A stretch of DNA of 64,000 bases from Octopus vulgaris (Eukaryota): the NCBI GenBank assembly GCA_951406725.2, contig OX597817.1:68510001-68574000 (forward strand), written 5' to 3'. Position 1 is the first letter of the stretch. The number at the start of each line of letters is the position of its first letter. A program made the position numbers and the translations under genes. Under the pieces are notes generated by a model. That model was not told the DNA's origin and made no database searches. It worked only from the letters and a program-made list of their open reading frames with translations. Of this stretch, positions 7,876-54,385 are shown one piece after another.

Positions 7876-10490
7876 AATGATATTTATGCGTCTGCAAATC
7901 AGCGCTGAATATGTCTGAAACGTCATAGAAAATTGGTCAGTTTCAAAACATTGATATCCAGGTCACAAAAGCAAAGTATGAATGGAATGATAGTCATTTC
8001 CTTTGATTTCTAGATAGAAGCAAATATAACACTTACTAACCAGAAATAAAAGAAGAAAAAACGCTATACAGTGTCATCGAACAAAAGATATCTCGCGGTA
8101 TTCAGTGGTATCCTTTTATGCTCTGAATGCAAACCCAGCCGCCAAATACGACATTGCTTTTCATACTTTTAGGATCGATAAAACAAAATACCCATCAGTA
8201 ACTGGAGTCGATAACATTGATTATTCCTTCTTTCCCAAAACTTGTAGCATTGTATCTATGTTAGACATCAGTAATAAATATTTATTAATGTATACATGAA
8301 TTAATGTTAAACTGTTAATTTATATCAATTAATATTTATTAAATTCAACTTTCAAATATATATTTAAATAGTAATTTGTATTCACCAATAATATTTCCTA
8401 TTAATTCATTATACAACTTGTAATTTCATATCACAATGTTCGCAACTGCATACTAATAAACTTTAGCTATAGTTTTATTAGATGTCTGGCTCACCTTTCG
8501 AGATACTTATGCACAATAATATGGCGGATTTGTTTCATGAATTTACTCTTAAGTTTAATCAAACTGCTGTTGTTATTGTTGTTGGAGGTACCTGAGGAAA
8601 ATGAGAATGGCCTTTATGGCTGACAACAGTTAGTCTGTAGGAGCGTTGAAAAAAATCTGCAAGTTCAGATGCCGTGAGGAGTGAGGAATTTAACATTTCT
8701 TCCTCTTGGCCTTCGTCTGAGAGTAAGGAAGACAGTGTGTGCATTTGTGTGTGTGTGTGTGTGTCTGAAGATGGTGCCTCTTTGATTTTGTTGTGTAACT
8801 CCAGTGAGCTTTGATCGAATGGAGTTAAACACGTTGGTAGCGAGTTGAATAACAAGATGTATAGATACGGAGTCAAGCAGCTTGGCATGTAGGTAGTTGG
8901 TCAAACAAGCAGGTAAACAGGCAGTCAGCCAAACAACAGATACGCCGTGATCCACAGACCCATTACTCCAGATATACCACGTCTCCCTAGGTTGAGAAAC
9001 ATACTGTACACACTTTTATACGATGGTCTTTTGCATGGGGTGCAGTGAGGAAGTGTTCTCATATTCCCGAATCAAACAGTTATTTATCTTGTTCTTAAGT
9101 CCCTCAAATGCATTGATTGAGTTGACCTAAGATAAAAGATAGTCCACCCATGACTCTCCGGTCTTATTATCAGACATAATGGACATAATACATTTTAGAC
9201 TACATTATACAATGTATCTTTTGATGCAGATTAAGGAAACATGGCAGCAATGCCTAGCAAATAAATCAACCATACTGATGTAGTAAGTGGATATGTGGCT
9301 ATAAGTTTATTTTGGCTGATATCTTTGACCATTTAAATATTATTATAAGCAATTTTATTTGTCATCACGCGTGGTTTATTCTAGCATTGTTGTTTATTTT
9401 ACCCACAACACAATTCAGATATGCAGAATTATAATGAATAAGAATTCAATCGTGGCTGTCCCACCTTTTCCTCCATCGTTAAATCTTCAATTACATTATA
9501 TAATGTATCTTCAAAGCAAGCAGGGTGTGATTTGAGGTGATGTTTGGCTGCAGCTTGTAGCAGATCGTACAACCTTGTAAATGCTTTCTCTGTTGGTACT
9601 TTTAACCATTACATATATAAGTATGTCCTTTGCATAGACAATTATCAGATGATTTGACTATTATTTTTAGCTTGAGAGACAATGTAGATTTCTACTTGTT
9701 GGTTCACACCACACAGCTTTAATAGGGATGGCATGAAATATATCTAAATATGTTGGGTATTATTGGCTTCAATAAGTGTCTTACTGTGATCCCTGACTGA
9801 AATCAGTTCATTCCACTCTTTTCAATGACTTATCCAGATTGATGGGAAAACATTATTATCAGAAAAATGATTGAAGCTAAGACTTGGAACACAGTGGATT
9901 CCGCTAAAAGCACATACGGGTTAGGAGGTGATATCAAATAGAGGGAATAAATACATGACTCATTAGCAAACACGGTCTACCAGATTAGTCTCAACTCAAG
10001 TTTTCATCTACAAAATTTTCTTCATGAAGATTAGGTGAACTCGAGGATCAGGTAAAAGACACTTGCGTAAGGTGCCACACAATCTCGTAACCACGTGATT
10101 GCAGAGCGAATTTCTTAACCACATATTTATACCTGAATCACTAATAAAGTTGGAAATATATTATTGTTACTGCCATCTATTTTATAGCCATCTAAGAACC
10201 GTAAAATTGAAAACAAGCATATAAATTTAATTCTAGCCTGGCCACCTTTCGCACCAATCAACCAATGTTTTGTTAACGATTTTTAAATCAGATAGAGCAA
10301 TTTTCATTTTAGCTCAGTATGTCCGCAGTATTCACCACTGAGATCAAACGAGGTTGCAATATTATGTCTAACTATCCACCGGCGTTCTGACTGAAGCCAT
10401 ACGTTTGCAACACAAAAGTATCTTAGAAAGTTTCTTTGAAACAAAATATTACAGCTAGTCTTGTTCTACATTTGTATACTTGCATGTACA

Positions 10491-11130
10491 CTGATATTCT
10501 AAACTAAGGATGTTTCAAGTACGTATATTAATTTAAGTCTTATCAGCGAGAGAAAAATCAATATTGAATTAATACCAATTTGTCAGTGATGTCATGTGCA
10601 GGAAAAAGGAAATGAAACGAGTATTTGCACAAAAAACAAATGCACTCTCCACTTTCACTCATAACATGGATTTTCCGTCGGGTTTCACGAAGATGGAATT
10701 CGGTTGTCCAGAGTAACGGAATTACCAATTAATTGTAGTTTTAATGTAAAGAGCGAATATCCTACAAACACTTATATCCCCTTGGTAGTTCAACTAATGC
10801 GCCCTGATATTCTAAACTAGGGATGTTTCAAGTACGTATGTTAATTTAAGTCTTTTATACGTATCTTATCAGCGAGAGAAAAATCAATATTGAATTAATA
10901 CTAATTTGTCAGTGTTGTCATGTGCAGGAAAAAGGAAAAGAAACGAGTATTTGTACAAAAAACAAATGCACTCTTCACTTTCTCTCATAACATGGATTTT
11001 CTGTCGGGTTTCACGAAGATGGAATTCGGTTGTCCAGAGTAACGGAATTACCAATTAATTGTAGATTTAATGTAGAGAGCGAATATCCTACAAACACTTA
11101 TATCCCCTTGGTAGTTCAACTAATGCGCCC
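10491..11130. repeat. Tandem duplication of a ~315-bp unit
   Basis: Units 10491-10803 and 10804-11130 both start ctgatattctaaacta and end caactaatgcgcc. They are highly similar, with a short insertion in unit 2. Confidence 0.95.
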
Positions 11131-11759
11131 AAAGTACCCTGCAACTGCAGGGTACTTATCTATTTATCTCTTAAACGTTGTCTGGAACGTGCCGAAATAG
11201 CTGAGAAGTTCTTCATATACTTTTATATTTCTTAACGAAGTTCTTTAGCAGAATCAGCCTGACACTTTAGGTTACATATCCTGCTCAATAGAAGAACTGT
11301 CACACAGTTTATCTCTACCCAGGTTTACTCACAACGCTTAGATCGATCGGATGTTGTGATACAAAATTCATTTTTAAGACGTCGCGCAAAGTTTCGATAC
11401 TACGCACGAACTTACTGCTTTACGCAACTGTATTGTCTTCTACTATACCTCGAGTCGACCAAAGCTTGAGAGTAGAATTGGTAAGCGGAAACTGAAAAGA
11501 AGCCCGTCGTGTTATATTCATACATATTCTTTTATTCTTTTACTTTTTCAGTCATTTGACAGCGGCTATGAAGGGTTTTAGTAGAACAAATTGACACCAA
11601 GGTTTATTTTTTAAAGCCTAGTACTTATCCTATCGTTCTATTTTGCTGAACGGCTAGGTTATGTGGACATACACACACCACCACCGGCTGTCATGCAGTG
11701 ATGGCAGGACAAATACAGACAAAAAAACACGCACATAGATACACACACACAGACACACA

Positions 11760-11813
<54 letters not shown>

Positions 11814-11848
11814 TGAAAGAATGGAGTCGAACGACGATTTTAACAATA

Positions 11849-11947
11849 TTCCTTTATTCTCGACATATGTTTCGAAGACTGCATATTCTTAATTCCGAAG
11901 GAATAAAGGGTGCATTATGCCGCCTTCTCATCAGGAAAGACAAGGAA
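11849..11947 (-). ncRNA. Type I hammerhead ribozyme, opposite-polarity twin
   Basis: The reverse complement of the left arm gives CUGAUGA-gaaggcggcau...augcagucuuc-GAAACAUAUGUC. Confidence 0.8.
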
Positions 11948-12072
11948 CCTATGTCAGCATCATGACGAACAAAAACTTTTAGATGATTTCCCACATGGAG
12001 TCCACATTATCACTGTGGACTCCGTGTGGGAAGTCATCTAAAATTTTTTGTTCGTCATGATGCTGACATAGG

Positions 12073-12171
12073 TTCCTTGTCTTTCCTGATGAGAAGGCAG
12101 CATAATGCACCCTTTATTCCTTCGGAATTAAGAATATGCAGTCTTCGAAACATATGTCGAGAATAAAGAAA
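12073..12171 (+). ncRNA. Type I hammerhead ribozyme (PLE-type, minimal stem III)
   Basis: CUGAUGA at 12086-12092; stem II gaaggcagcau/augcagucuuc with an inner hairpin; GAAA at 12147-12150; C-AUAU-GUC with palindromic CAUAUG. Predicted cut after 12158. Stem I uuuc/gaga, extendable with mismatches. Confidence 0.8.
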
Positions 12172-12357
12172 TTTTGTTAAAATCGTCGTTCGACTCCATT
12201 CTTTCACTTATTTATAGTTAAAAATCACACAAATTTCCACACGAAAACACGTGATTTCTGCCCCTGGCATGTAGCTTCAACCGTGTTTTCTGACGTGAAT
12301 TTGCTACCCGGGTATCGGTTAACCGAATTGTCCATACTAGGATAATTCATTCACTTA

Positions 12358-12402
<45 letters not shown>

Positions 12403-14074
12403 CTACCAAATCCACTCACAAGGCTTTGGTGGGCTATAGTAGAAGGTACTTGCCTAAGGTGCCACGAAGTAGGACTGAACCCGGAACCATGTGGTTGGGA
12501 AGCATGTTTCTTAACACACACCCACGACTGCGCTTAATATATATATATATATATATGAACGCACATGCGCCATAGTGTCTATATTTGTCCCTCATCACCG
12601 ACTGACAACCGGTATTGGTGTGTTTACCACCCCATAACTTGTTGGTTCGACAAAAGAGACCGATAAAATAAGTACCAGGCTTTAAGTGCAAAAATGCACC
12701 GGGGTCGATTCGATCGACTAAAGTTCTTCAAGGCGGTGCCCCAGCATGGCCACAGTCTAATGACTGAAGCAAGTAAAAGTTAAAGTAATTAGTGAAGATG
12801 TTATATAACCCTAGGTCAGGTCTAATTACAGGAATTCTAACATGAATATTCTAGACTTCTAATAAAAGGTATTCTAGCTATAAACAGTTATAACCCCTCT
12901 TATCCAGACTAGATTAACCCCAAACAGCCGAAGAAAAATACCCTAGCTGAAGGCTTTGCACACTAAATACAAGTGCGTTAGGGACTTGTGTATGCAATAC
13001 AGTGAAGTGAAGAGACTCGATTAACTGAGATTATACATGAAATTAGTAGATTTAGCATCTATGCTTGCATAGATAATCTCAGTCAATCGAATATTTTCAA
13101 TTATTCTCGGATTCCCTACTACCGATTTCTTCTGCAAAATCGGGATAACGGCGGATTATCTGAGAAATGAGTCCTTCGAGGTAGAGTGGTTGTTGCAGCA
13201 CTTGTCACTGTCCATACTTCGTGGCAACGTCATCGCTGTCATTATTGCGGGGCGCCGCTTAGCACACCATTTGTTTTGAGGTGTATCACCCATCATCCCC
13301 TCCCACCCCACCTTTTCTTTACTCCCTTTATTACTTTCTTTTCCTTTTTAAATTTTTTGTCTGTTTCTTTGAATTTGAATGTTATAATTTAAAATATGAT
13401 CTGTTGTATAATATTGACTGTAGAAATAACAGCTTTTTACATCTTCTAAATTCTCTATATTATATATGTGCAACTCTATCGTATATGTATTTATATAGAA
13501 CACCATTCTAAAGTATTTTCCATTCAGTCATATTGATGATATTCATAATCAGCATCACCGCCATACTTACTATTTCTTTCACTGTATAGCATCAGCCCAT
13601 ATAATCTTGTAAAGGGGATGTTTTATTGAGGAGGTCTAATAAAACAGAAACATATCTCTAAAACAAGAACGATATCCATTTTCAAAAATCTTTCATTTGG
13701 CTTATAATTTAGAACGATCCTGCTTGCATTTTTATCTGCTTAATTTAGGAATTAAGCACTCTAAGAGTAAGTATATATGTTGTCTATTAATTTCTTGAAT
13801 AATTTCAACTAATTTAACCGTTACAACTAACTATATTGATGTGGACCCCTAGCGTATTTACCGTGTTAATGTCATGATTGTGTTTGCTGTCTTGAGAAAG
13901 GTTAAATAAATTAAACATCTAAATATACTGGAGTCTGCCATTGAGGATTGTGTATGTAACTCATGAGAGTTTGAAATCTCTAAGTTTGGAGTTTCTTACG
14001 AATATTTATTTTAATCTATGTACATACAGGCTATATTGTTTCTAGTATATTTATATTTTATCTACAGTTATTTT

Positions 14075-16288: not shown

Positions 16289-16332
<44 letters not shown>

Positions 16333-16335
<3 letters not shown>

Positions 16336-17012
16336 CTATTATGGGATAAAATTTTCGAAAAAATTTTATCAATGGCTAGCATATTAAAAAATACCTTTAA
16401 AAGTTAAATTTATAAACAACTTATAAACGAGACGCGTGCTTATAGTGATGAATTATATGGTTATTGGCGATTAAGCCTATTTTCGGCATATTTGGCTTTA
16501 GAATATTTTTCTTTTGCTCTTGTTTATAAGTTGTTTATAAATCTAACCTTTAAAGGTATTTTTTAATATGCTGGTTATTGATAAAATTATTTCGAAAATT
16601 ATATCCTATATTAGATGTAAATTTAATACTATTCACTTCCAGACTCTCTCACTCTATGAGAATTTTCAGTCTGATCACACGTTTCTCGACATTTGCAGTA
16701 GAATTTCTATTTTGGATATATTTGGGGTACTTAAATGTACACATGATTTAGTGTTTTCTTCTTCCATGGGTGCATGTAAGTATTTCATATATTTCTTATC
16801 GTATTTATCGCTGACGACGAGAAAATTCTTATGAATTAACTCAAAAATCGGTGCTGATTCGAAAATAACAGAATTTAAAAAAAAATTCTGTCGGCTTGCT
16901 TCGGGACGTGTGCTTATAATGATGAATTATATGGTTATTGACGATTAAGTCTATTTTCGGCATATTTGGCATTGGAATTTTTTCTTTTGCCCTTGTTTAT
17001 AAGTTGTTTATA
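16333..17012 (+). mobile_element. Penelope-like pseudo-LTR element with inverted and partial-tandem structure
   Basis: Inverted repeat 16333-16432 vs 16518-16617; direct repeat 16431-16539 vs 16905-17012; degenerate hammerhead (CUGACGA at 16811, GAAA mutated); flanked by (AT)n; homologous to 27768-28146. Confidence 0.7.
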
Positions 17013-27771: not shown

Positions 27772-28146
27772 ATGTAGGATAACATTTTTTCGAAAAAAAA
27801 TTTTATCAATGGCCAGCATATTAAAAAATAACTTTAAAGGTTAAAATCATAAACAACTTATAAATAAGGGCAAGCGAAAAAAGTTCTAATGCCAAATATG
27901 CCGAAAATTGGACATATTGTCCATTATCATATAATTTATCACAATACGCACGCTACTCGAAAGAAAGCCGACAGAAATTTCTAAAAAATTCCATTATTAC
28001 CATATCGGACCGATTTCAGGGTTAGTTCGTAAGAACCCTCCCTTCGTCAGTGATAAACGTGATAAATTATATGATATTGGACAATATGTCCAATTTTCGC
28101 CATATTTGGCATTAGAAATTTTTTCGTTTGCCCTTATTTGTGAGTT
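27768..28146 (-). mobile_element. Penelope-like pseudo-LTR with inverted partial copy (same family as 16333-17012)
   Basis: 28059-28146 is the reverse complement of 27855-27942, with a hammerhead at the inversion junction. Confidence 0.7.
27994..28057 (-). ncRNA. Type I hammerhead ribozyme, intact core
   Basis: uuuauca-CUGACGA-aggg..guuc uuac gaac..cccu-GAAA-ucgguccg-AUA|ugguaa. All three stems pair. Predicted cut between 28003 and 28002. Confidence 0.8.
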
Positions 28147-29862: not shown

Positions 29863-32022
29863 CGGGTTTAGATGGTCTGTTCTACGAGCTTTGCAATCGG
29901 ATGCCAGACTTGTTTGGAGACGTCTTGGCAGCAGTGTACTGCAACTAGCAGCAAAATGGGAACACTCCTGGTTTTGTGAGCCGATGAGCTGTGACGCTGC
30001 TGAAGAAAGATCCAAAAAAGGGGGACGTAATAGATAACTGTAGGCCCATTACTCTGCTCAATGCAGATTTGAAAATTTTGGCCAAGGTGTTAGCCAAGAG
30101 GTTGGTGCTTGTCATCGAGAAACTGATCGACAAGGCGCAAACGTGCACCGTGCCGGGCTGGGACATCCATGACAACCTCCATCTGATGCGCTACATTATA
30201 GACAGGGTAGTTAAGAAACCTGGCATTGGTGAGGCTCTGATCAATTTGGATCAATCCAAAGCTTTAGATAGGGCAGACCATCGATACTTGGAGGCTGTTT
30301 TCATAGCAGCCCGTTATCCGCGGCTGGATAGCTGCCTTGTACAGAGGCATCCGTTTGGACCTTTCGACATTGCTGGTGACGCTGAGGGGAATCCCACGAG
30401 AAATGGGGGGGGGGGCGTATGCGCATGCGAGGATTACGTCATCGTCATAGTGTCTAGCCATGAGTACATCGAGCTCGTCGGCGGAACACTGAAAGACTAC
30501 GAAGCGGTAACGGGAGCAAAAATCAACCGGGGAAAAGGCTTGCGGCTCGGCACCTGAAGAAGAAAACCCATGCCGTCCACCAGCGCCTCTGTCGTGGGAC
30601 GCTGGACCGACAATCCGGTCAAGTTGCTCGGGGTCTGGTTTGGTCCGGACCTCCAAACGGAGAACTGGGACAAGATAACGAGTAGGGTGGCCACGCTCTC
30701 TCGTCAATGGGCCGAGAACATCCCCTTCCGCTTCTTGTGGAAAGGAAGCATTCCGATGGTCAGGCGATCCGTTTGCTGCCAACACCCGCTAAAAGGAGGG
30801 ATGGGCATGCCGTGGTTGATAATGTGCAAACATGTGCAGAGGCTGCGACATCTCCGGTTCTATGTAGACGATGGTGGACAAGTGTGGTCGCCGTTTGGGT
30901 GGTGCGCTTTCCCGCAGCTCATCTCCATGACCGAGCTGCAGTTGTGGGTCAAGAAGAGGCCGAGGAAGGGCCAATAGTATCGTGAGTGTCGCGTTGCTCT
31001 CGAACAACTATGCCGTCCACGTCGATCTTGAGCGACTGCATCACAACCAAAGCATTCTATAGGAGACTAGTGGAGGGGAGATACGACGACGATCTCGGGG
31101 TGAACCTGGGCGTCGACGAGAAATACCTGACCCGCCTATTCAAGACGACTTTCGGACCGGGACCTATGGACAACTTCCAGAGATCCCTGGCCTGGCAGTG
31201 CTATCGAGAAGCGCTACCCGTTCAGGATAAGCTCTACAGACACGGCTCGAGAAACACGAGGCCGACCTGCTCGAGATGCGGTCAGAGTGACGAAACCATT
31301 CTGCACGCACTCGTGCAGTGTCCAACCATTTCCGACCTGTGGGCTTATGTCGAACGACTGCTGTCACGTGTGGGACGAATCGGTTTATCAGCCGAGTCTA
31401 TCGTCATTATTATCGTGCCTTCTTCCTTCAAACGGGAAAGAAGAGCCATTTTCATCGCACTTGTAGCTATGGCGAAATAATGTGTGTGGTGGACGCGTAT
31501 GAAAGGACTAGAGACAAACACTTTCCTCTCTGGTCAATTTTTCATCAACTTCTTCAAGTATCATTTGAAAAAGAAGGTGATAGTAGAGAGGGAAGTTTTG
31601 TCTAGCGAATGCTTCAACAAAAGATGGGTGAATGTAGCAAGGATGGCACGTGGGAATGACGGAACCATATTGAGCATAATCCTATGAACCAGAAAAAAAA
31701 AACAAAGGAAAAAAGAGTTACCTACTCGTAAATGTGTTATTGTGTGACATTATTGCCCAAGGTTACCGTGGTCTTTTCGTAGGTTTTTTCTTTCCACGGA
31801 CAAGCCTCCCTACTTTTCGGAACTTCTTGTGCTAATTCAACTTTTGTATATCCCAAAGATTTCGATCCCTTTTGATCGTTGTCCCTATTCTTATTTTTTA
31901 TTTGTTTTTTGTTTGATTTCGCCCACTTCGAAAAGAAAAAAAAACTCTATATTGTATTGTCCCCTCTATGTTCAGCCCTATGTTCGAACGTGCGTGCCTC
32001 AAGCATATTCGGGCTGATAATA
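29863..32022 (+). mobile_element. Tx1/L1-clade LINE ORF2 pseudogene, 5'-truncated and internally deleted, with 3' UTR
   Basis: GLDGL...TLLKKDPKKG..NCRPITLLNADLKILAKVLAKRL; LDQSKALDR (RT); a degenerate YADD region; FLWKG; GGMG; CSRC..ETILHALVQC zinc knuckle. Contains stops and frameshifts. Confidence 0.85.
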
Positions 32023-32579
32023 ACATTGCAATTTTACTTATCACTGCTTAGCGCTCCCCCTCTGTAATCTATCTATCTGTTTATTATGCCTGTATATAAT
32101 ACATACGCACGCATACACATCATGCATAATCATATTACATACGCATTAAATATATAATTTATTGATATAACTTTTAGGCACTCAAATATGGGAGAACGGT
32201 CCCTTGTAGCTGAAACAGCTGTAAGCTAATTGAATTCATTCTTTTGCTATTCATTTATTAATAAATATTACACTAGGTTTTTGACCCGCTGGTTCATATA
32301 AGAATCCAGAACAGAGATGTCAGACAGTTCACACCTCCTCACTGCCGGATCTTATTAATACTGTTCAGTATAAGTATATTGATTTCTAACAACTGGTTAT
32401 TGCTACCGCTATGGCAAAGCGGAATTATGAAACACATTAAATATATATGTACGTTTAGACGCGCACACACGCACACATGCACGCACACGCAAATACTCGC
32501 ACACACACACAGACATACACATGAATATACACAGTATATTGTATACACGCATATATATACGTATAAATACCAAATTATA

Positions 32580-32618
<39 letters not shown>

Positions 32619-32635
32619 AAATATATACATACATA

Positions 32636-32804
32636 GGCGCAGGCGTCTCCGTGTTGTCAGAAGCCAGCTTCTGAACGACACGGTTTGGAGTTCAGTCTCA
32701 CTGCGTGACACCTTGGACAAGTGTTTTCTACTATAGCCTTGGGTAGACGAAAGCCTCGTTAATGGATATGGTAGACGGAAAATGAAAGAGGTTTGTCGTG
32801 TATG

Positions 32805-32805
<1 letters not shown>
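32636..32805 (+). mobile_element. SINE A head followed by expanded (AT)n
   Basis: ggcgcagg...ccttggacaagtg...ggtagacggaaa. Confidence 0.75.
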
Positions 32806-32900
<95 letters not shown>

Positions 32901-32911
32901 CACATATATAT

Positions 32912-33406
32912 TAAAATGTCTAAATCTCTCTAAAGGAGACTACGGCAGAGGTACTGGATATTAATAGTTATCGTCAAGCTAATATGGCAGTCCATATTGA
33001 AAACCAGTGGATGTATTCCACTAAATTTAGGCAAATAATCCTTCGAACAGACGGTTAGTCACGACGCCTGCTGGGCGTGTGCTCTCCATTGATAAGGAGC
33101 AAATACCCTGAAACTAGTCTCCAGATGCCTGACCAGCAAGGGGAAGCGGCTGACCTCCCTTGTTCGATGGTTATAATGAATACAGGTTCGTGTGTCACAT
33201 ACCTAGCTAGAGGCGATGGCCTCTTGGAGCTAATCAACCGCAGTATTCGTCCTATATTTCTGGACTGCCATATTAGCTTGGCGATAACTATTAATATCCA
33301 GTACCGCTGCCATATTTTCCTTTAGAGGGACTAAGAAATTTTTATATTTCTATTTTTGAAAACCAGTGGATGTATTCCACTGAATTTAGGTAGGTAAATA
33401 ATCCTT
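32912..33406 (+). mobile_element. Penelope-like fold-back/partial-tandem element
   Basis: IR 32912-32994 / 33261-33344; direct repeat 32997-33043 / 33356-33406; hammerhead-like UUGAUAA (33089) ... GAAACUAGUC (33110-33119). Confidence 0.65.
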
Positions 33407-34510
33407 ATAACATCCATTGGAAATCACCATAAAAATAGTTATATCAATTGGCTCTACCTAAGAAGAGATAAAGGAGGTAGGTGCTTGATATTAGTACAAA
33501 CAGTTTTCGAATGTCACATAGTCTCTCTCAGACAGCACTTGCTAAACAATAGCAAAAATAAACATTTCAATTTAGTGCCGAAGAGTGAAGAAAACAATAT
33601 CTTATCCGTTTGAAGTGAGATCCTTAAGAAGTACTCTCTTCCTGATGATCTCCCATACAACCCTAAATCAGCCGGAGTAGTATCCCTCAAAGAAGACCTA
33701 AAGGTGAAACGCTCAGCATACAAAAAAACCCTCCAAATCCTGCATGGCTATGTTTCTCGTAGACTTGCAGAAGATAGTAACATTGACATGGATCGAAACT
33801 TCTCCTGGACTCGTGGCCGCTAAATCACATCACACTTCGAAGACTATGCATTTGCAATCCAATGAGATTGCTACAAAATAACTAATCAACAAAAGAGACA
33901 ATAAAGTTCTTAGTGTTCCAAGATGCAACCTTAAATGTAGATTTTGTCATATTTTTGTGAAAGATATCACACGTGTGATTAGCAGCTGCCCAAGAAGTGT
34001 CATCAAGGAACTACTTCCCTATGCGATACTACGTTGTCACAAAAACAGTATAACAAAAATACCAGTACAACGACTACTGGTGGAACATAACCATCAAAAT
34101 ATCTGTTAAGCGTAAGCAAAAAAGGCTAGATATTGTTGTTTGGGACAGACAAGTATTTAACGTCATAGAGGTCAGCTGTCCTACTGATGGAAATATCTCT
34201 TTGAAAATCAAAGAGAAAGAAGGTAACTATGGATGACCGCTTCGAATGCTCCAGTTCTATATAAGGATTACAAATTTACATTTATACCAATAATAATTTG
34301 AACATTTGGTTTTGTAAGCTTGGATTTTCAGAAAAAGGAATCAAGCAACTGATTCGCACATTACAAATTCAGCCTTTAAGCAGAACAGTAAAACTATGCA
34401 AAACCTTTCCCAGGTTTAAAATGTGACATTGTTTTCACTATCTACCATTGAAAGATGGAGCTTTGTATCTTTGTTAGAAATCAGCTCCTTCTTCCGAGGA
34501 AGAATTTAAA
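33407..34510 (+). mobile_element. R4-clade RLE LINE 3' half, degenerate
   Basis: WLYLRRDKGGRCL, LHGYV, ITSHFEDYAFAIQ, a CxxC knuckle remnant, YWWN and DIVVWD. 3' UTR homologous to that of 44820-45872. Confidence 0.8.
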
Positions 34511-34554
34511 TGATTAAACACACAAGACATACATTCACGCCTACATACACACAT

Positions 34555-35190
34555 ACAGGGCAAGTGCAGCAGGACAGAGGACAGGGTGACCCACACTACA
34601 CGCTTCCTAGATATATTGGAAACCAACGGGTACTCTATATCCATTGTAAATCGGCTTAAGTACCCAAGACGACCAACACGCTGAACGCATAGAAAACCCA
34701 GCAACACATGCTTCCTTAAAATACCCCAATTTTAGCGAGGGGATAACTACAGCCATCCGAAGAGCAATAACAAGAGAAGGGCTAGACATACAACTAGCCA
34801 ACTCCGGCCCCTCTCTGCGAAGACACCTCGCAAAGAAACCAACAAGGGGCAACAATCAATGCGAACTAACAAACTGTCCCACCCATGATACAGATTTATG
34901 CCAACAGGTAAATGTTGTGTATAGAATACAATGTAATAAATGCAACAAGTTCTATGTGGGTAGCTCAACAAGACCGTTACACGTCTGCATCAAAGAACAT
35001 CTGAACACGAGTGCCCCCTCCTTCAGAAAACATCTAGACAGATGCCAGAACATCGACGAAAGCATAACAGTCACAATTGAGGCCAATGAAAGAAATTTGG
35101 ATAATTTTAGAATTAAGGAAGCTATTCTCATACAGACTAGGGCCCCAAATTAACAACAGGCTGGAGTTTGGTAATCAATATATTATTTAG
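34555..35190 (+). pseudogene. Penelope-like element: RT C-terminus, Cys-rich linker and GIY-YIG endonuclease
   Basis: FLDILETNGYS...CELTNCPTHDTDLC-QQVNVVYRIQCNKCNKFYVGSSTRPLHVCIKEH...IKEAILI. Contains stops and frameshifts. Confidence 0.85.
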
Positions 35191-35763
35191 CTACATCTGG
35201 ATGCATGTAAGTTCATTTTTGATAACATGCTCATGTATTGTTTATAAAAAAAAAAAAAAAAAAAAAAAAAAGAAAAAGGAGAGAACGGGGGGAAATGGAA
35301 GCTGCACGTATAACTCATAAATTAGAAGCAACGCTACGGATGTGCTAGCCCACACGAGATTGAGAAATGGCGGACCTCATGCAATTCTCATCAGGAATTC
35401 CGGAAGGAGCATCGTGAGACCACTGCAGAGATGCTTCCGAAAAAAAAAAAGAAAAGCCGTTGGAAAAACGATTATAGCAGCGACTCCATTAGTTCTTTGG
35501 GATATCTGAAGAAGGAATTTTTATTCCGAAATAGCATATCAGAATATGGATGATTCAATCACAACAGTTGTTATAGTCCATTGCTTGTATTATAGTGCAT
35601 TGTTGTGTCATTAAAAACATTTTGTTCATTATAAACAATACACAATGCTTCAAGCGAGCTACAATACTCTCCTATACATACTCATGTGCATACATGTATA
35701 CATGCATACATCCATGCATGCATACATCCATCGCTCCAACTATCCCTCCCTCCATCCATTCAT

Positions 35764-35794
<31 letters not shown>

Positions 35795-36065
35795 CACACA
35801 CACATACACACACACACACACACACATGCATACGAGCGTAGATAAGAATGACTGAAATAAATATATATGTAAATGGCTCAGTGTTAGAGATAATTCTAAG
35901 AACGTAAACATATCTTTCTATAACTGGAAAAAATTGTATGTATGTATGTTTTTTATATGTATGTATACGTATGTATGTATGTATGTATGTATGTATGTAT
36001 GTATGTATGTATGTATGTATGTATGTATATATGCGTGTGCGTATATGTGTGTGTATGGATATATT

Positions 36066-36135
<70 letters not shown>

Positions 36136-36233
36136 AATATATATGTATAGATATGCATACATTTGCATACACACTCCGAATAACCATACCAATATAAATA
36201 TACAAACACAACATATATATATATATATATGTA

Positions 36234-36274
<41 letters not shown>

Positions 36275-36348
36275 ATATATATGTATACATATGCATACAT
36301 TTGTATACACACTCCAAATAACCATACCAATATAAATATACAAACACA

Positions 36349-36387
<39 letters not shown>

Positions 36388-36796
36388 TATGTATATATAT
36401 ACACATACATATATATAATATATACACACGTTACATATATAGTAACCTTACATATATGCTTGTGTCTACATCATTATAATCAGATTCCACAGAAGATTAA
36501 CACATATTCCCCATACACACATGCACATACACACACACACACACACACAAACAAACACACATATACACATACACATGTGCATGCATGCACATGCGTATGT
36601 TATCATTATTGCCTTTGTAATTGGTTATTGAAATTCACGTAAAATATAAAGTCATTGTAATAAACACCGTTACTATGATTTAAGTAATAAAAGTAATGTA
36701 AATATTGTGTTTGCAATAAAATATTGATGCCGTATCATGAAAAATATCACGAATAACGTCCTTTAATTTCAAAGGAGCGTTAAATATACATTAGGT

Positions 36797-36831
<35 letters not shown>

Positions 36832-36913
36832 TATATACACACATACATATGTATATATATATATATATATATACATATATACATATATATATATACACAT
36901 ATATATATATATT

Positions 36914-36958
<45 letters not shown>

Positions 36959-37122
36959 TTATATATATATGTATATATATATATATGTATGTATATATGT
37001 ACATACATATGAATATACACACACATATGCACATTTATACTTGGATATATATTTATATATGTATATACATATGCATATATATATACACACAAATATATAT
37101 GTTTATATGTGTGTCAGTATAT

Positions 37123-37219
<97 letters not shown>

Positions 37220-37652
37220 ATATATGTACAGGTGTATATTTATATGCCTTTACATTGAGATCATGTATAAACATCATAAACCATATCCGAGGTGTTTAAG
37301 AGCTCAATTATGAACACAATACGTTATTACAATGTAATAAAGATAGATGGAATTAAAAAAAACTGATATGTCTGTACATAATCTGCTAAAACGATAGTTG
37401 AGAGCAACCTGTTTAGAATATTAAGCAGGGGAAAACCATACATTAAACATATTATTAATAATTTAATTATTTCGGGAGCTATTTCAAAGGAATAAAGACA
37501 TCATTTATTTAATGTGTAATTAACATACATAATTATTTAATTACAATATAACAAGTTGCCCATCTTACCTGATGAAATGAGCAGTCCATCACATTTAAAT
37601 TTATTACGTATGCCAATTATGTAATTATATACATACATACATACACACACAC

Positions 37653-37720
<68 letters not shown>

Positions 37721-37732
37721 CATATATTTGTA

Positions 37733-37969
37733 TTAAAACCCGATTTTATTCGGGTCTACTCGGGCCACATTTTAAAGATGAAGAATTTTGCCCTAGAGGG
37801 CATGCCATTCAATTGAGCAAACTGAAAGTTGCCAGGAAAACTCCTCAGCACTTTTAACATAGGTGTGCAATTTTTCTGATCAATCCGACCACATTTACTA
37901 ACGCTTTTGCCTGCACAGCTGCTTGTGAGATAACCTCCGCCCTTTTCACAAAAATATAGTATATATATA

Positions 37970-38000
<31 letters not shown>

Positions 38001-48638: not shown

Positions 48639-48672
<34 letters not shown>

Positions 48673-50305
48673 CAGTTGTGGCCAAAATATTCAGAACGGC
48701 ATTGTTTTCACCAGAAAAGTAAGTATAAGTTTTTATAAAAGTTATTTTATATTCTATAATTTTCACAAACAATAAATACAATATTAATTATTATTGTCTG
48801 AGATTTTGGTGTAATTTGAGAGGATAATACAAAAGTTATGGATGATTTAGTGATTTACTGCAAAACCCATGGCGGCCAAAATGATCAGAACGGTTGAAAA
48901 AATAACAAAATAATCAAAAATGACAGAGAATACTGGAATTATTTAATATTTAGTGTGAAGCCCTTTAGCTTCAATCACACTTTGACATCTTCGACTGCAT
49001 GAGGAAATTAAATTTTCAATTTCTTGCTAGGTGATCTTATTCCATTCTTCCTGAAGGGCATGCATTCCATAATTGGTCGGTTGTTTTAGGATTTCTGGCT
49101 TTCGAACGTTCTCCTAGAATATTCCACACATTTTCAATAGGATTGAGATATAGGCTTTGAGCCGGCCAATCCATAATAATAACCTTTTCAGCCTTGAGGA
49201 AGTTCATGACCACCTTAGCCTTGTGACATGGGGTATTGTCCTGCATGAATATGGGTGGTCGCTTAGTTGAATTTCTCAGCACAGGCAAGACATGATCTTT
49301 TACAAGTTGTTTATAAACTCCTGCATTTACCTTTCCATGTAATCGCACCAAAGGGCCCACACCATCTCCAGATATCATCCCCCAAATCATGACACTTCCT
49401 CTACCGAATTTAACACTAGTCTTAAGGCATTTAGGCGACAATTTTTCACCTACTTTTCAATGAACGTACCTTTTCCCATCTGAGCCAAATAACATAAACT
49501 TAGATTCATCACTGAAATGCACTGTTTGCCATTTTTCTTGAGACCACAACACATGTTCGGTTGCAAAGGTAAAACGACACTTTTTATTTTTGGAGCTGAT
49601 CAGTGGCTTCACTGCTGGTGATCTTGCTTGTAGGTTATGTTCAACTAAACGATGAGACAAGTTTTTCGAGATAACGTTTTCTTCAGTACAATGCTCATTT
49701 CCCGAGAAACAGCAGCAGCAGTTTTAAATCTGTCCTTTTTAACCAACTTTACCATAGCACGATCTTCTCTCTTGGTCGTTTTTCTTGGCCTATCTGTAGA
49801 CTTTCTTGCTTCACACGAACCACAATCATCGAAGACCTTAAGAATACCGTGAACAACACTTTTTGACTTGTTAACAATCTTTGCAATAGACCCAATACTT
49901 AAATTATCCTTCTTTGGAAGCTTAATAATCTGCTGACGAATTGATAACGGAGTAAGTGGCATTATATTAACAAAGTACACTGCAGATATTCTTACTAATG
50001 TTTAGTAAACGAACCGTCACGTAAACAAATTCAAAACATTAGAGTTCGCCGGTTAAATATACTAAAACATGTAGTAAAAGCAACCGTTCTGATAATTTTG
50101 GCCGCCATGGGTTTTGCAGTAAATCACTAAATCATCCATAACTTTTGTATTATCCTCTCAAATTACACTTAAATCGCAGACAATAACAATTAATATTGTA
50201 TTTATTGTCTGTGAAAATTATAGAATTATAAAACAACTTTGATAAAAACTTATACTTACTTTTCTGGTGAAAACAATGCCATTCTGAACATTTTGGCCGC
50301 AACTG
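48673..50305 (-). mobile_element. Full-length Tc1-family DNA transposon, IR/DR type
   Basis: TA|cagttg ... caactg|TA. ~224-bp TIRs (48673-48896, 50081-50305), each with outer and inner direct repeats ggccaaaat..tcagaa.gg. Confidence 0.95.
48943..49962 (-). pseudogene. Tc1 DD34E transposase, disrupted
   Basis: HTH region with (G)RPRK; FSDESKF; MQDN..H; 34 residues; NPIEN; ends GLHTKY*. Frameshift near 49650, stop at ~49457, frameshift near 49050. Confidence 0.92.
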
Positions 50306-50901
50306 TATATGAGTATAATTTGAATGGAGGCAATACGAACGGAAATTCTAGGGGAACATGACCTATTATCCAGCAGAATATTCAGTATATATGTGTACTT
50401 TCTTCGACATTAATAAAGCAATATATAGTTCGAAACAATAGTGGTAGTAAAAACATACAAGAATATAAACATATAAATATTTAAAAACACGCACATATTT
50501 AAAAACACGTAGGCATTTTAAAAATATATAAACACATAAGTAGATACATAAATAGATATAAAAAAAACATCGATATGATATAAGACATAGTGAATTATAA
50601 ATTCACACGATATGATACAAAGGAATAAAAATTGACAAGTTACAACAGAAGCATATGAAATATTTAAAAACACGTAGGTATTTAAAAATATTTAAAAATA
50701 TTTATAAATACGTAGGCATTTTAAAAATAGAAAACATCGATATTATATAAAACATAGTGAATTATTAATTCACACGATATGATACAAAGGAATAAAAAAA
50801 ATACAAGTTACAACACGAAGGCCAGTGGAAAGTTTGAAATTATAAAACATTAAAAGGATATACTAAAATACGAAGATAATGTTCAATGGATCCAAAAGTT
50901 T

Positions 50902-50988
50902 CATCGACGGGTCGTTTCGGAGATGTGTCAGATAATATGACATAAATTTCATACTTTAAAGGAAACAGACACTCCCCTCATCAGGATG
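50902..50988 (-). ncRNA. Type I hammerhead ribozyme, intact core
   Basis: cauc-CUGAUGA-ggggaguguc...gacacaucucc-GAAA-cg acc c-GUC|gaug: 4-bp stem I, long stem II, short stem III. Confidence 0.8.
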
Positions 50989-53004: not shown

Positions 53005-54385
53005 GTCCCTGAAAAGTCGGGCAGAGGTGATGAATGCTTACATCGCCTCTGTTATCGTTTATCATCTGACCGTCGCGCCTTGTCCCAGTTACTGCATGAC
53101 CAGGTTGAAGCGTCTCTAATTAAAATTTTCCAATGGTCAGGCGGTCAGTCTCTTGCCAACATCCTCTAAGTAGCGGATTAGGTATGCCGTGGCTCCTAAT
53201 GCGCAGACACGCTCTTAGGTTGCGCCACTTGCAACGATTTCTGGATGGCGAGTGTATATGAGCACCGTTTGTGAGGATCGTCTTTCCACAGTTCATCTTC
53301 ATGATGGAGCTGCAGTTCTGAGTGAAGAAATTACCGAGACTGGGCGCCTGGCACCTAAAATATCGTCAGACGCTCACAACCCTCTACCGGTCGAGCAATG
53401 GGATCGGTGGATGTTCTGCTTTAGAAATTTATAGAGGATTAGTGGCGGGGAAGTGCGATGATGTTCTCGGGGAAACTCTGGGTTCCAACGAGAACAAACT
53501 GGCTAGTCTGTTCCGGAGAACTTTCCGGTCAGGAACTGTCATTGATAATTTCCAGATGTCCTTGGCCTGGCAGTGCTACCGGGGTGGGGGCGCTACCGGT
53601 TCGAGATTAACTCTACAGGCACGGATGTCAGATAAACTCTACAGGCACGGATGTCAGATAAACTCTACAGGCACGGATGTGCTGTCAGACGGACTTATTC
53701 TAGGTGCACGCAGAGTGACGAAACCATTATTCACGCCTTCGTTCAGTTTCCGGGTATTGCTGACTTGTGGGGTTATGTTGAACAGCTGCTGTCAAGTGTG
53801 GGACGGATCCGTCTGTCGGCCGAGTCTATGATAACTTCCCTTAATCGGGCAGGCAAGGCGGTTTTCCTTTGCTTGGTGGCTGTGGCGAAAGAGGTTGTTT
53901 GGTGGACAAGGCTGAAAGGCAAGAGGACAGATATATTCCTCTTTGGTAGAGTTCTCATTGACTTTTTCAAGTTTAACTTGAAAAGGAAATCGGGAGTGGA
54001 GAGGGAAGTAATGTCCTCGAGTGAGTTAATTGAAAGGTGGGTGAAATTTGCGAAAAGGACAAGAGTGTATGGTACCTCTCTAAGTGTCGATCTATGAGTC
54101 GGAAAGAAGGAATTGGAGAGGGCACTTGCTCCTTGAGTTTCAGGAAAATCTCGAACAGTGGGGTTCCTCGATTATCCCTTGGTACCTCCTGTATCAGGAG
54201 GGCCACATCTCTATCATCCTCCTACCATTTTTTAAAATCTTTGTTTGCTATGCATATGTCTCTCCTTTTCAGTGTATACCGTGTATACTTACTTTTTTTT
54301 ATCATTTCATTATATGTAAACACCCACGCATTATGTCTGCCTCTGTACTGTCCCCCTCATTCTTCGCCCTTATGGCAAATAAATC

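Follow-up and report, generated by a model that had tools for sequence, protein, structure and literature searches.

The closest described counterparts of the hairpin presented here are the insertions of Penelope-like elements. According to the accessible parts of the literature, these elements show an inverted 5'-truncated copy, a one-sided tail of 30-40 bp and (TA)n targets (PMC8557442), and for one of them, Penelope-13_HM, the supplementary tables list one hammerhead per strand (PMC8557442 supplement). Head-to-head was described as the commonest arrangement, and self-priming was proposed (Arkhipova et al. 2013, PMC3846280). Dual minimal hammerheads on opposite strands, 100-700 bp apart, were found by Cervera and De la Pena (2014, PMC4209133) to be weakly active, dimers included. 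The PAc protein cleaves and extends both target strands, and two RT start sites bound the tail (Frangieh et al. 2024, PMC11167929); the PAc ribozyme is protein-assisted and dispensable for insertion, and no RNA-seq ends were observed at its cut site (PMC11167929). For Octopus vulgaris, 30 recently active Penelope families were reported in a paper whose accessible part does not mention ribozymes (PMC13282606).

The hairpin studied here lies in the window, by which we mean the whole stretch of 64,000 nucleotides of Octopus vulgaris DNA that was analysed. As far as published insertions of EN+ Penelope-like elements are described in the accessible text, it shares with them a 5'-truncated direct copy with an adjacent head-to-head inverted 5'-truncated copy of about 200 bp, a one-sided tail, a (TA)n target and a hammerhead, here of type I, near the 3' end; it differs by the absence of a remaining ORF, by a tail of about 147 nt instead of 30-40 bp and by a centre that consists of a 7-nt loop (PMC3846280; PMC8557442). 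Further Penelope-like features were a dispersed high-copy family, variable 5' truncation and (TA)n targets across this family. In our reading, to which we give a probability of about 0.78, the hairpin goes back to one insertion event, by which the 3' end of a very abundant repeat, with its hammerhead, came to lie in the (TA)n tract of a host repeat; the abundant repeat is likely a Penelope-like retroelement. The insert would consist of a direct copy with tail and a head-to-head inverted copy, and the hairpin would be a passive by-product whose ribozyme is predicted to be locked. The inverted-copy origin had been named as background in the initial annotation of this DNA, and head-to-head geometry, truncation, one-sided tail and TA target all agree with it. 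The name Penelope-like is drawn from this architecture and is likely, but an ORF-less derivative mobilised in trans would be equally allowed.

The left arm (11810-12006, minus strand) and the right arm (12014-12210, plus strand) measure 197 bp each and lie head to head around a loop of 7 nt (12007-12013, plus strand). Alignment of the arms confirmed this geometry as it had been read by eye, with 6 mismatches at 11996/12024, 11987/12033, 11976/12044, 11921/12099, 11851/12169 and 11847/12173; the duplex is 97% perfect. Folding of 11800-12220 as RNA gave −346.6 kcal/mol (z −46.9), a stability that none of 100 shuffles reached. Both arms are 5'-truncated copies of the 3' end of the element, the right one direct, the left one inverted and stopping at the short 3' end of the family. 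The loop is family sequence as well, namely the upstream continuation of the direct copy, of which only these 7 nt upstream of the arm are present at the locus. No direct repeat of the arm was found in the window. The extent first given for the feature, 11810-12210, holds for the hairpin; it does not hold for the whole insert, which runs on to about 12360 with the tail.

The limits of the insert follow from its flanks. The left flank (11530-11762, plus strand) matched window copies of a composite repeat at 1225-1001, 21265-21051 and 51502-51286 with 70-76%, and the right flank (12402-12545, plus strand) matched copies at 947-796, 21001-20865 and 51256-51115 with 80-82% and is collinear with the left one. 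In these three other copies the two halves are contiguous, parted by a single TA/CA tract. We take this host repeat to be an octopus SINE-like composite. Since the flanks are the two halves of one host repeat, the insertion spans 11810 to about 12360, with (TA)n on both sides: at 11763-11809, the place where the unsplit copies carry one such tract, and at 12361-12395, as read from the sequence. A target-site duplication is unreadable because the TA repeats hide it.

The family to which the arms belong was followed in public sequencing runs. Twenty of the 24 listed runs (9 studies) contain the stretch or part of it; none is recorded as RNA. The contigs of 4 of the 24 runs were aligned to 12007-12360 at 85% likeness, and matching contigs numbered 2690, 2287 and 1803 in three large runs (X1 to X3) and 64 in a fourth, small one (X8), these last being no evidence of expression since X8 is only guessed to be RNA. 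Summed depth, which is not a copy number, reached 150,000-1,100,000 over ribozyme and tail, compared with mostly 10-115 for single contigs. Taken as they stand, the contigs imply a family of thousands of copies. The alignments of contigs X2#9, X3#17 and X8#25 begin at 12007, and over 12007-12018 the summed depth came to 31,000-38,000 in the three large runs. Depth climbs toward the 3' end and drops about tenfold upstream of 12067-12078 in X1, which could mean that many copies are cut off just 5' of the ribozyme, with divergence as an alternative cause. This steep fall precedes the hammerhead core by 8-19 nt. Changes of the kinds A>G plus T>C and G>A plus C>T affected 19/18 places in X8 and 15/16, 15/13 and 13/12 in X1 to X3, counts which, coming from contigs, cannot show editing.

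The insertion is asymmetric, with the tail of about 147 nt (12217-12360, plus strand) on the direct copy only. This tail is family sequence with a depth of up to 1.1 million at 12295-12306, and family contigs bridge arm and tail (X3#24, which covers 12188-12288 at a depth of 876, X2#14, X8#31 and X8#32). Copies of the family can thus end 3' at a long or at a short end, and it is the latter that bounds the left arm. Loose contig ends mark the short end motif (12198-12216, plus strand), which is identical in 17 of 19 nt to the long end motif (12345-12363, plus strand), where the loose ends 12335 and 12353 enter the same end motif or TA repeats. Behind 12216, TA repeats followed in 22 contigs of run X1. 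Other loose ends, before 12274 in X2 and X8, have different upstream sequence joined to the distal tail; this suggests a related subfamily that would have the last ~90 nt of the tail in common.

An intact hammerhead motif on each strand, as claimed in the initial annotation, was indeed found, with a palindromic stem III and loop III. The right arm carries a type I hammerhead motif at 12073-12171 (plus strand), with the core at 12086-12092, GAAA at 12147-12150, loop III at 12152-12155 and GUC at 12156-12158; its stem II (12093-12104/12135-12146, plus strand) closes a loop II of 30 nt and the predicted cut lies after 12158. In the left arm the motif occupies 11849-11947 (minus strand), with the core at 11934-11928 and the predicted cut after 11862. 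Each arm has a proximal stem I of 4 bp, CUGAUGA, a stem II of 6+5 bp flanking one mismatch, GAAA, GUC and a stem III of 2 bp with a palindromic 4-nt loop III; the CUGANGA core, GAAA, the UH cleavage triplet and the three helices of a type I hammerhead are thus present in both. For the self-duplex of loop III and stem III, −8.4 kcal/mol was computed. The distal stem I of 6 bp is fully paired in the left arm and has one pair broken in the right arm by a private change at 12169, where the family letter G makes up 98.6-99.4% of depth. The two hammerheads are one sequence duplicated and are found in both polarities because of the inverted repeat. An AATAAA at 12162-12167 (plus strand), directly 3' of the predicted cut site, is a putative poly(A)-like signal.

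A type I descriptor scan of the window returned 5 matches versus a mean of 0.015 per dinucleotide shuffle (n=200). They comprised the two hairpin arms, 50984 and 28050 (both minus strand) and one at 30000 within an RT remnant, the last one probably by chance. The search with the Rfam hammerhead model that had been suggested as a check, by contrast, gave no hammerhead at the gathering score, nor was there one among the 28 Rfam matches obtained for 11700-12400 with E<=10. That the Rfam models miss these hammerheads is probably due to the long loop II. Rfam miRNA matches at E<=10 were discarded, as all were below gathering score and reflect the hairpin shape.

Conservation of the core was seen across the family: among the 40 variant rows shown of 61, no position of CUGAUGA, GAAAC or GUC was variable, and the stem variants keep pairing. 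Among family variants, all of them unphased, 12097 G>A and 12142 T>C turn a G-U pair into A-U or G-C, 12098 C>T gives a U-G pair, 12099 A>T pairs with 12140 and closes the stem II mismatch, 12161 G>A gives a U-A pair, and 12081 C>T or 12163 A>G closes a mismatch, lengthening stem I. With 12154 A>G, loop III still self-pairs via G-U, as judged by eye. Such stem-compatible variation would fit selection on the motif in active source elements. The arms themselves tell of their origin and decay. Position 12207 is C in both arms versus T in at least 99.8% of family depth, and this rare letter common to both points to one template, or to gene conversion afterwards. The family letter stands in the left arm at 12044, 12099 and 12169, where the right arm has a private one, and two of the six arm differences are CpG versus CpA. 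From their pattern, the differences look like neutral decay since insertion.

As regards coding sequence, no RT or GIY-YIG sequence linked to the arm was found: 151 Penelope-like proteins matched the window only at 34500-35499. Translation of 12009-12041 (plus strand) gives a peptide that could be the last 10 codons, with stop, of a putative upstream ORF, and which in our estimation resembles endonuclease C-termini. None of the 151 proteins ends in this terminal peptide of the arm, nor was a match to it as the end of an endonuclease ORF seen among them or in the supplement text of PMC8557442, whose long lines are partly visible. For the 52-codon open frame at 12008-12163 no homologue was found. 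Four arm motifs had 0 matches in the consensus file of Naiad_Obim, Naiad_Ovul and Hydra-1_Obim, where line breaks or cut lines could hide one; judged by eye, the hairpin family is unlike Hydra-1_oBim in its hammerhead row and unlike Naiad_Obim at the 3' end. A published description of the family was not found among the accessible octopus Penelope and hammerhead papers, a search that lay outside most subscription journals and Repbase/Dfam. A pattern scan gave 0 matches in viral contigs, and its one metagenome match (L001) was rejected as a 24-nt chance match within bacterial genes.

Several neighbouring features of the window deserve description. A remnant of a Penelope-like GIY-YIG endonuclease lies at 34650-35153 (plus strand), with 734 relatives at E<=0.001, and three of four tested relatives pass or approach the Pfam RT and GIY-YIG cut-offs. 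It was considered as the gene of the hairpin family and rejected, having only 13 nt in common with the arm region and belonging to another family. Degenerate hammerhead-like pieces in both orientations follow it at 35385-35530. A second intact-looking type I hammerhead, at 50902-50988 (minus strand), has a long interrupted stem II and a 4-bp stem I and is unrelated in sequence to the hairpin family. A foldback element at 27855-28146, beside a TA tract, has 88-nt arms (93%) and a 116-nt spacer which holds the descriptor match from 28050 (minus strand); it is possibly another inverted Penelope-type stub. Another foldback element next to a TA tract, at 16332-16618, has 101-nt arms (90%), the outer of which resembles 27775-27860 by eye. 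At 48668-50310 a DDE_3 transposase remnant (49037-49456, minus strand) is placed between 230-bp inverted repeats of 95%, and at 10484-11130 there is a tandem dimer of retrozyme size, with units of 313-326 bp that are 91-97% alike, without a hammerhead descriptor match. Broken remnants of non-LTR retrotransposons occupy 29988-31480 and 53322-54097 (plus strand), with an RVT_1 match at 29988-30554.

The hammerheads of the hairpin can be compared with those of other systems, within what the accessible texts describe. Like the Penelope-like hammerheads of Schistosoma mansoni, they are of type I, on opposite strands within 100-700 bp (152 bp between core starts in the hairpin), with a short helix I, a long helix II and a palindromic helix III region; they differ by a helix II of 6+5 bp with a 30-nt loop, by a stem III of 2 bp with a 4-nt loop and by the 6-bp distal stem I beyond an internal loop in the left arm (PMC4209133). 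With PAc (Poseidon) of Anolis carolinensis the locus shares an AT-rich target and two element ends bounding a tail, and the distance from the start of stem II to the short end is about 118 nt in the hairpin (12093 to 12210) and 111-118 nt in PAc. The PAc ORF, however, starts at stem II, whereas the ATG frame at the hammerhead core of the hairpin runs for 25 codons before it closes, and the two ends lie 147 nt from each other (PMC11167929). In animal non-LTR retrozymes, too, a type I hammerhead sits in a short non-coding repeat that is related to the ends of Penelope-like elements (PMC7229834; bioRxiv 10.64898/2026.07.22.740005). They are head-to-tail tandem units (PMC7229834), whereas the hairpin is a head-to-head pair with ends in TA repeats. 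Tandem monomers of the retrozyme kind were not observed: there was no direct arm repeat in the window and no 'go back' joint among the 8 listed, and the ends enter TA repeats.

How could such arms arise? In the preferred reading, the element endonuclease would nick the TA tract, reverse transcription would start at the long 3' end (about 12360) and stall near 12007, and the cDNA would fold back at the centre and copy itself to the short 3' end (about 12210), which would be joined to the other side of the target. The arms would have drifted by 6 changes afterwards. In the family, opposite-strand joints were seen at 12011/12115, 12016/12286, 12094/12220 and 12109/12267, each at a single-contig depth of 12-50 (4 runs). 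Three of these four have no shared letters; the orientation of the joints is not given in the data. As their coordinates differ, inversion recurs at differing points, and the hairpin is not a fixed unit. The junction of the locus itself is absent from the listed joints of the 4 runs, in which the aligned stretch began at 12007 and 60-104 contigs per large run overrun its ends, so that contigs across the junction may be counted among these.

An origin of the same Penelope type could also have involved two priming events, one per nicked target strand, with the long 3' end on one side, the short 3' end on the other and a head-to-head joint between their products; or the TA tract of a first insertion could have received a second one. 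That the left arm reaches precisely to the short 3' end of the family, that short and long ends are alike (17/19 nt) and that three of the four other joints lack the microhomology which simple fold-back would predict speak for it, as does the purified Penelope-like protein which, in the accessible account, cleaves and extends both strands with two RT start sites bounding the tail (PMC11167929). We nevertheless find this course of events unlikely: the stops of two independent cDNAs would have to agree to within 7 nt, and the rare C at 12207 in both arms would need either a common source copy or gene conversion afterwards. It is very unlikely that the hairpin is a palindromic non-autonomous element (MITE-like or foldback) moving as a fixed unit of about 400 bp. 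Two of the four other joints do have one side at 12011 or 12016, near the hairpin centre, the joint 12016/12286 was present in two runs, and the window contains other TA-flanked foldback elements. However, no high-depth joint at 12007/12014 was among those listed; the other joints were variable and of single-contig depth, of 6844 aligned contigs only 1, from X1, could be placed at two positions of the stretch, the depth around the centre amounts to about one tenth of that at the ribozyme, and the structure is asymmetric with its tail on one side only. The least credence goes to an assembly or library fold-back artefact. It would agree with the absence of the junction from the listed joints, but the arms differ at 6 sites, whereas a fold-back artefact gives identical arms; the flanks are not mirrored but are collinear halves of the host repeat, and the left arm ends at a natural family end.

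Avsunviroidae are circular RNAs that carry a hammerhead in either polarity and pair imperfectly, which allows each ribozyme to fold while they replicate. The hairpin resembles viroid-like RNAs in that a hammerhead is readable on each strand of a highly paired RNA. It is, however, a piece of chromosomal DNA in which a single ribozyme was duplicated; its duplex is 97% perfect, and there is one cut site on each strand. The initial annotation had suggested a viroid-reminiscent, rod-like RNA that could switch between self-cleavage and a long dsRNA. In its fullest form this model would have a functional toggling RNA which possibly also forms circles in the manner of a viroid. Both motifs are intact, the run guessed to be RNA contains family contigs, and siRNAs from inverted Penelope regions are in print, as far as the accessible text goes (PMC3681739). 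Our data did not support the switch. Owing to the head-to-head geometry, transcription of either strand reaches the antisense arm ahead of the ribozyme arm, and in computed prefix folds the duplex zips up while the second arm emerges. Core nucleotides were unpaired with a computed probability below 0.001 in the full hairpin, where forcing the hammerhead fold costs 128.4 (plus strand) or 132.0 (minus strand) kcal/mol, compared with about 3-6, in one computation 3.3-3.8, in a lone arm. One cut site per strand yields no unit-length monomer or circle, no 'go back' joint was among the 8 listed, and the arm differences resemble neutral decay, one of them breaking a stem I pair. The likeness to a viroid fails furthermore on an inversion point that varies among copies and on the chromosomal insertion in a host repeat. 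We consider the toggling RNA highly improbable.

The hairpin is instead predicted by these models to keep its ribozyme locked rather than to switch. The penalty falls to 6 kcal/mol or less only if transcription starts right of 11945 (plus strand) or left of 12075 (minus strand); only transcripts starting inside the hairpin beyond about these points would free a ribozyme, and such a ribozyme, its stem III being 2 bp long, would probably depend on a protein or on a partner ribozyme for cutting. Read-through RNA, if transcribed, would form a duplex of about 200 bp and, by analogy, be a plausible generic substrate of ADAR or Dicer. In the accessible reports, siRNAs match inverted Penelope regions (PMC3681739), palindromic repeats are linked to hyper-editing, and a lizard Penelope is heavily edited (PMC5625713).

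Taken alone, the locus matters little, since accounts of Penelope-like elements already contain its arrangement, hammerheads on opposite strands and the consequence for small RNAs. It is mildly unusual by its long tail (about 4 times the described length), its twin 3' ends and the long-stem hammerhead missed by Rfam. The modest value of the family lies in thousands of long-stem hammerheads invisible to Rfam, and this twin-ended family would lend itself to a test of whether inverted arms arise by fold-back or by double priming. A tentative and rather doubtful extension would be that the family has two alternative RT start sites 147 nt apart, marked by the duplicated 19-nt motif annealing to TA targets, and that the locus records the use of both in one insertion, one per target strand. 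If this were true, the thousands of copies would be a natural dataset to decide the origin of Penelope-like tails and inverted arms, and its inverted pairs would be ribozymes that muzzle themselves, which transcribed regions would tolerate and which would supply ADAR or Dicer with substrate. In an octopus, such hairpins would be one concrete source of the abundant perfect dsRNA that the accessible literature links to hyper-editing (PMC5625713).
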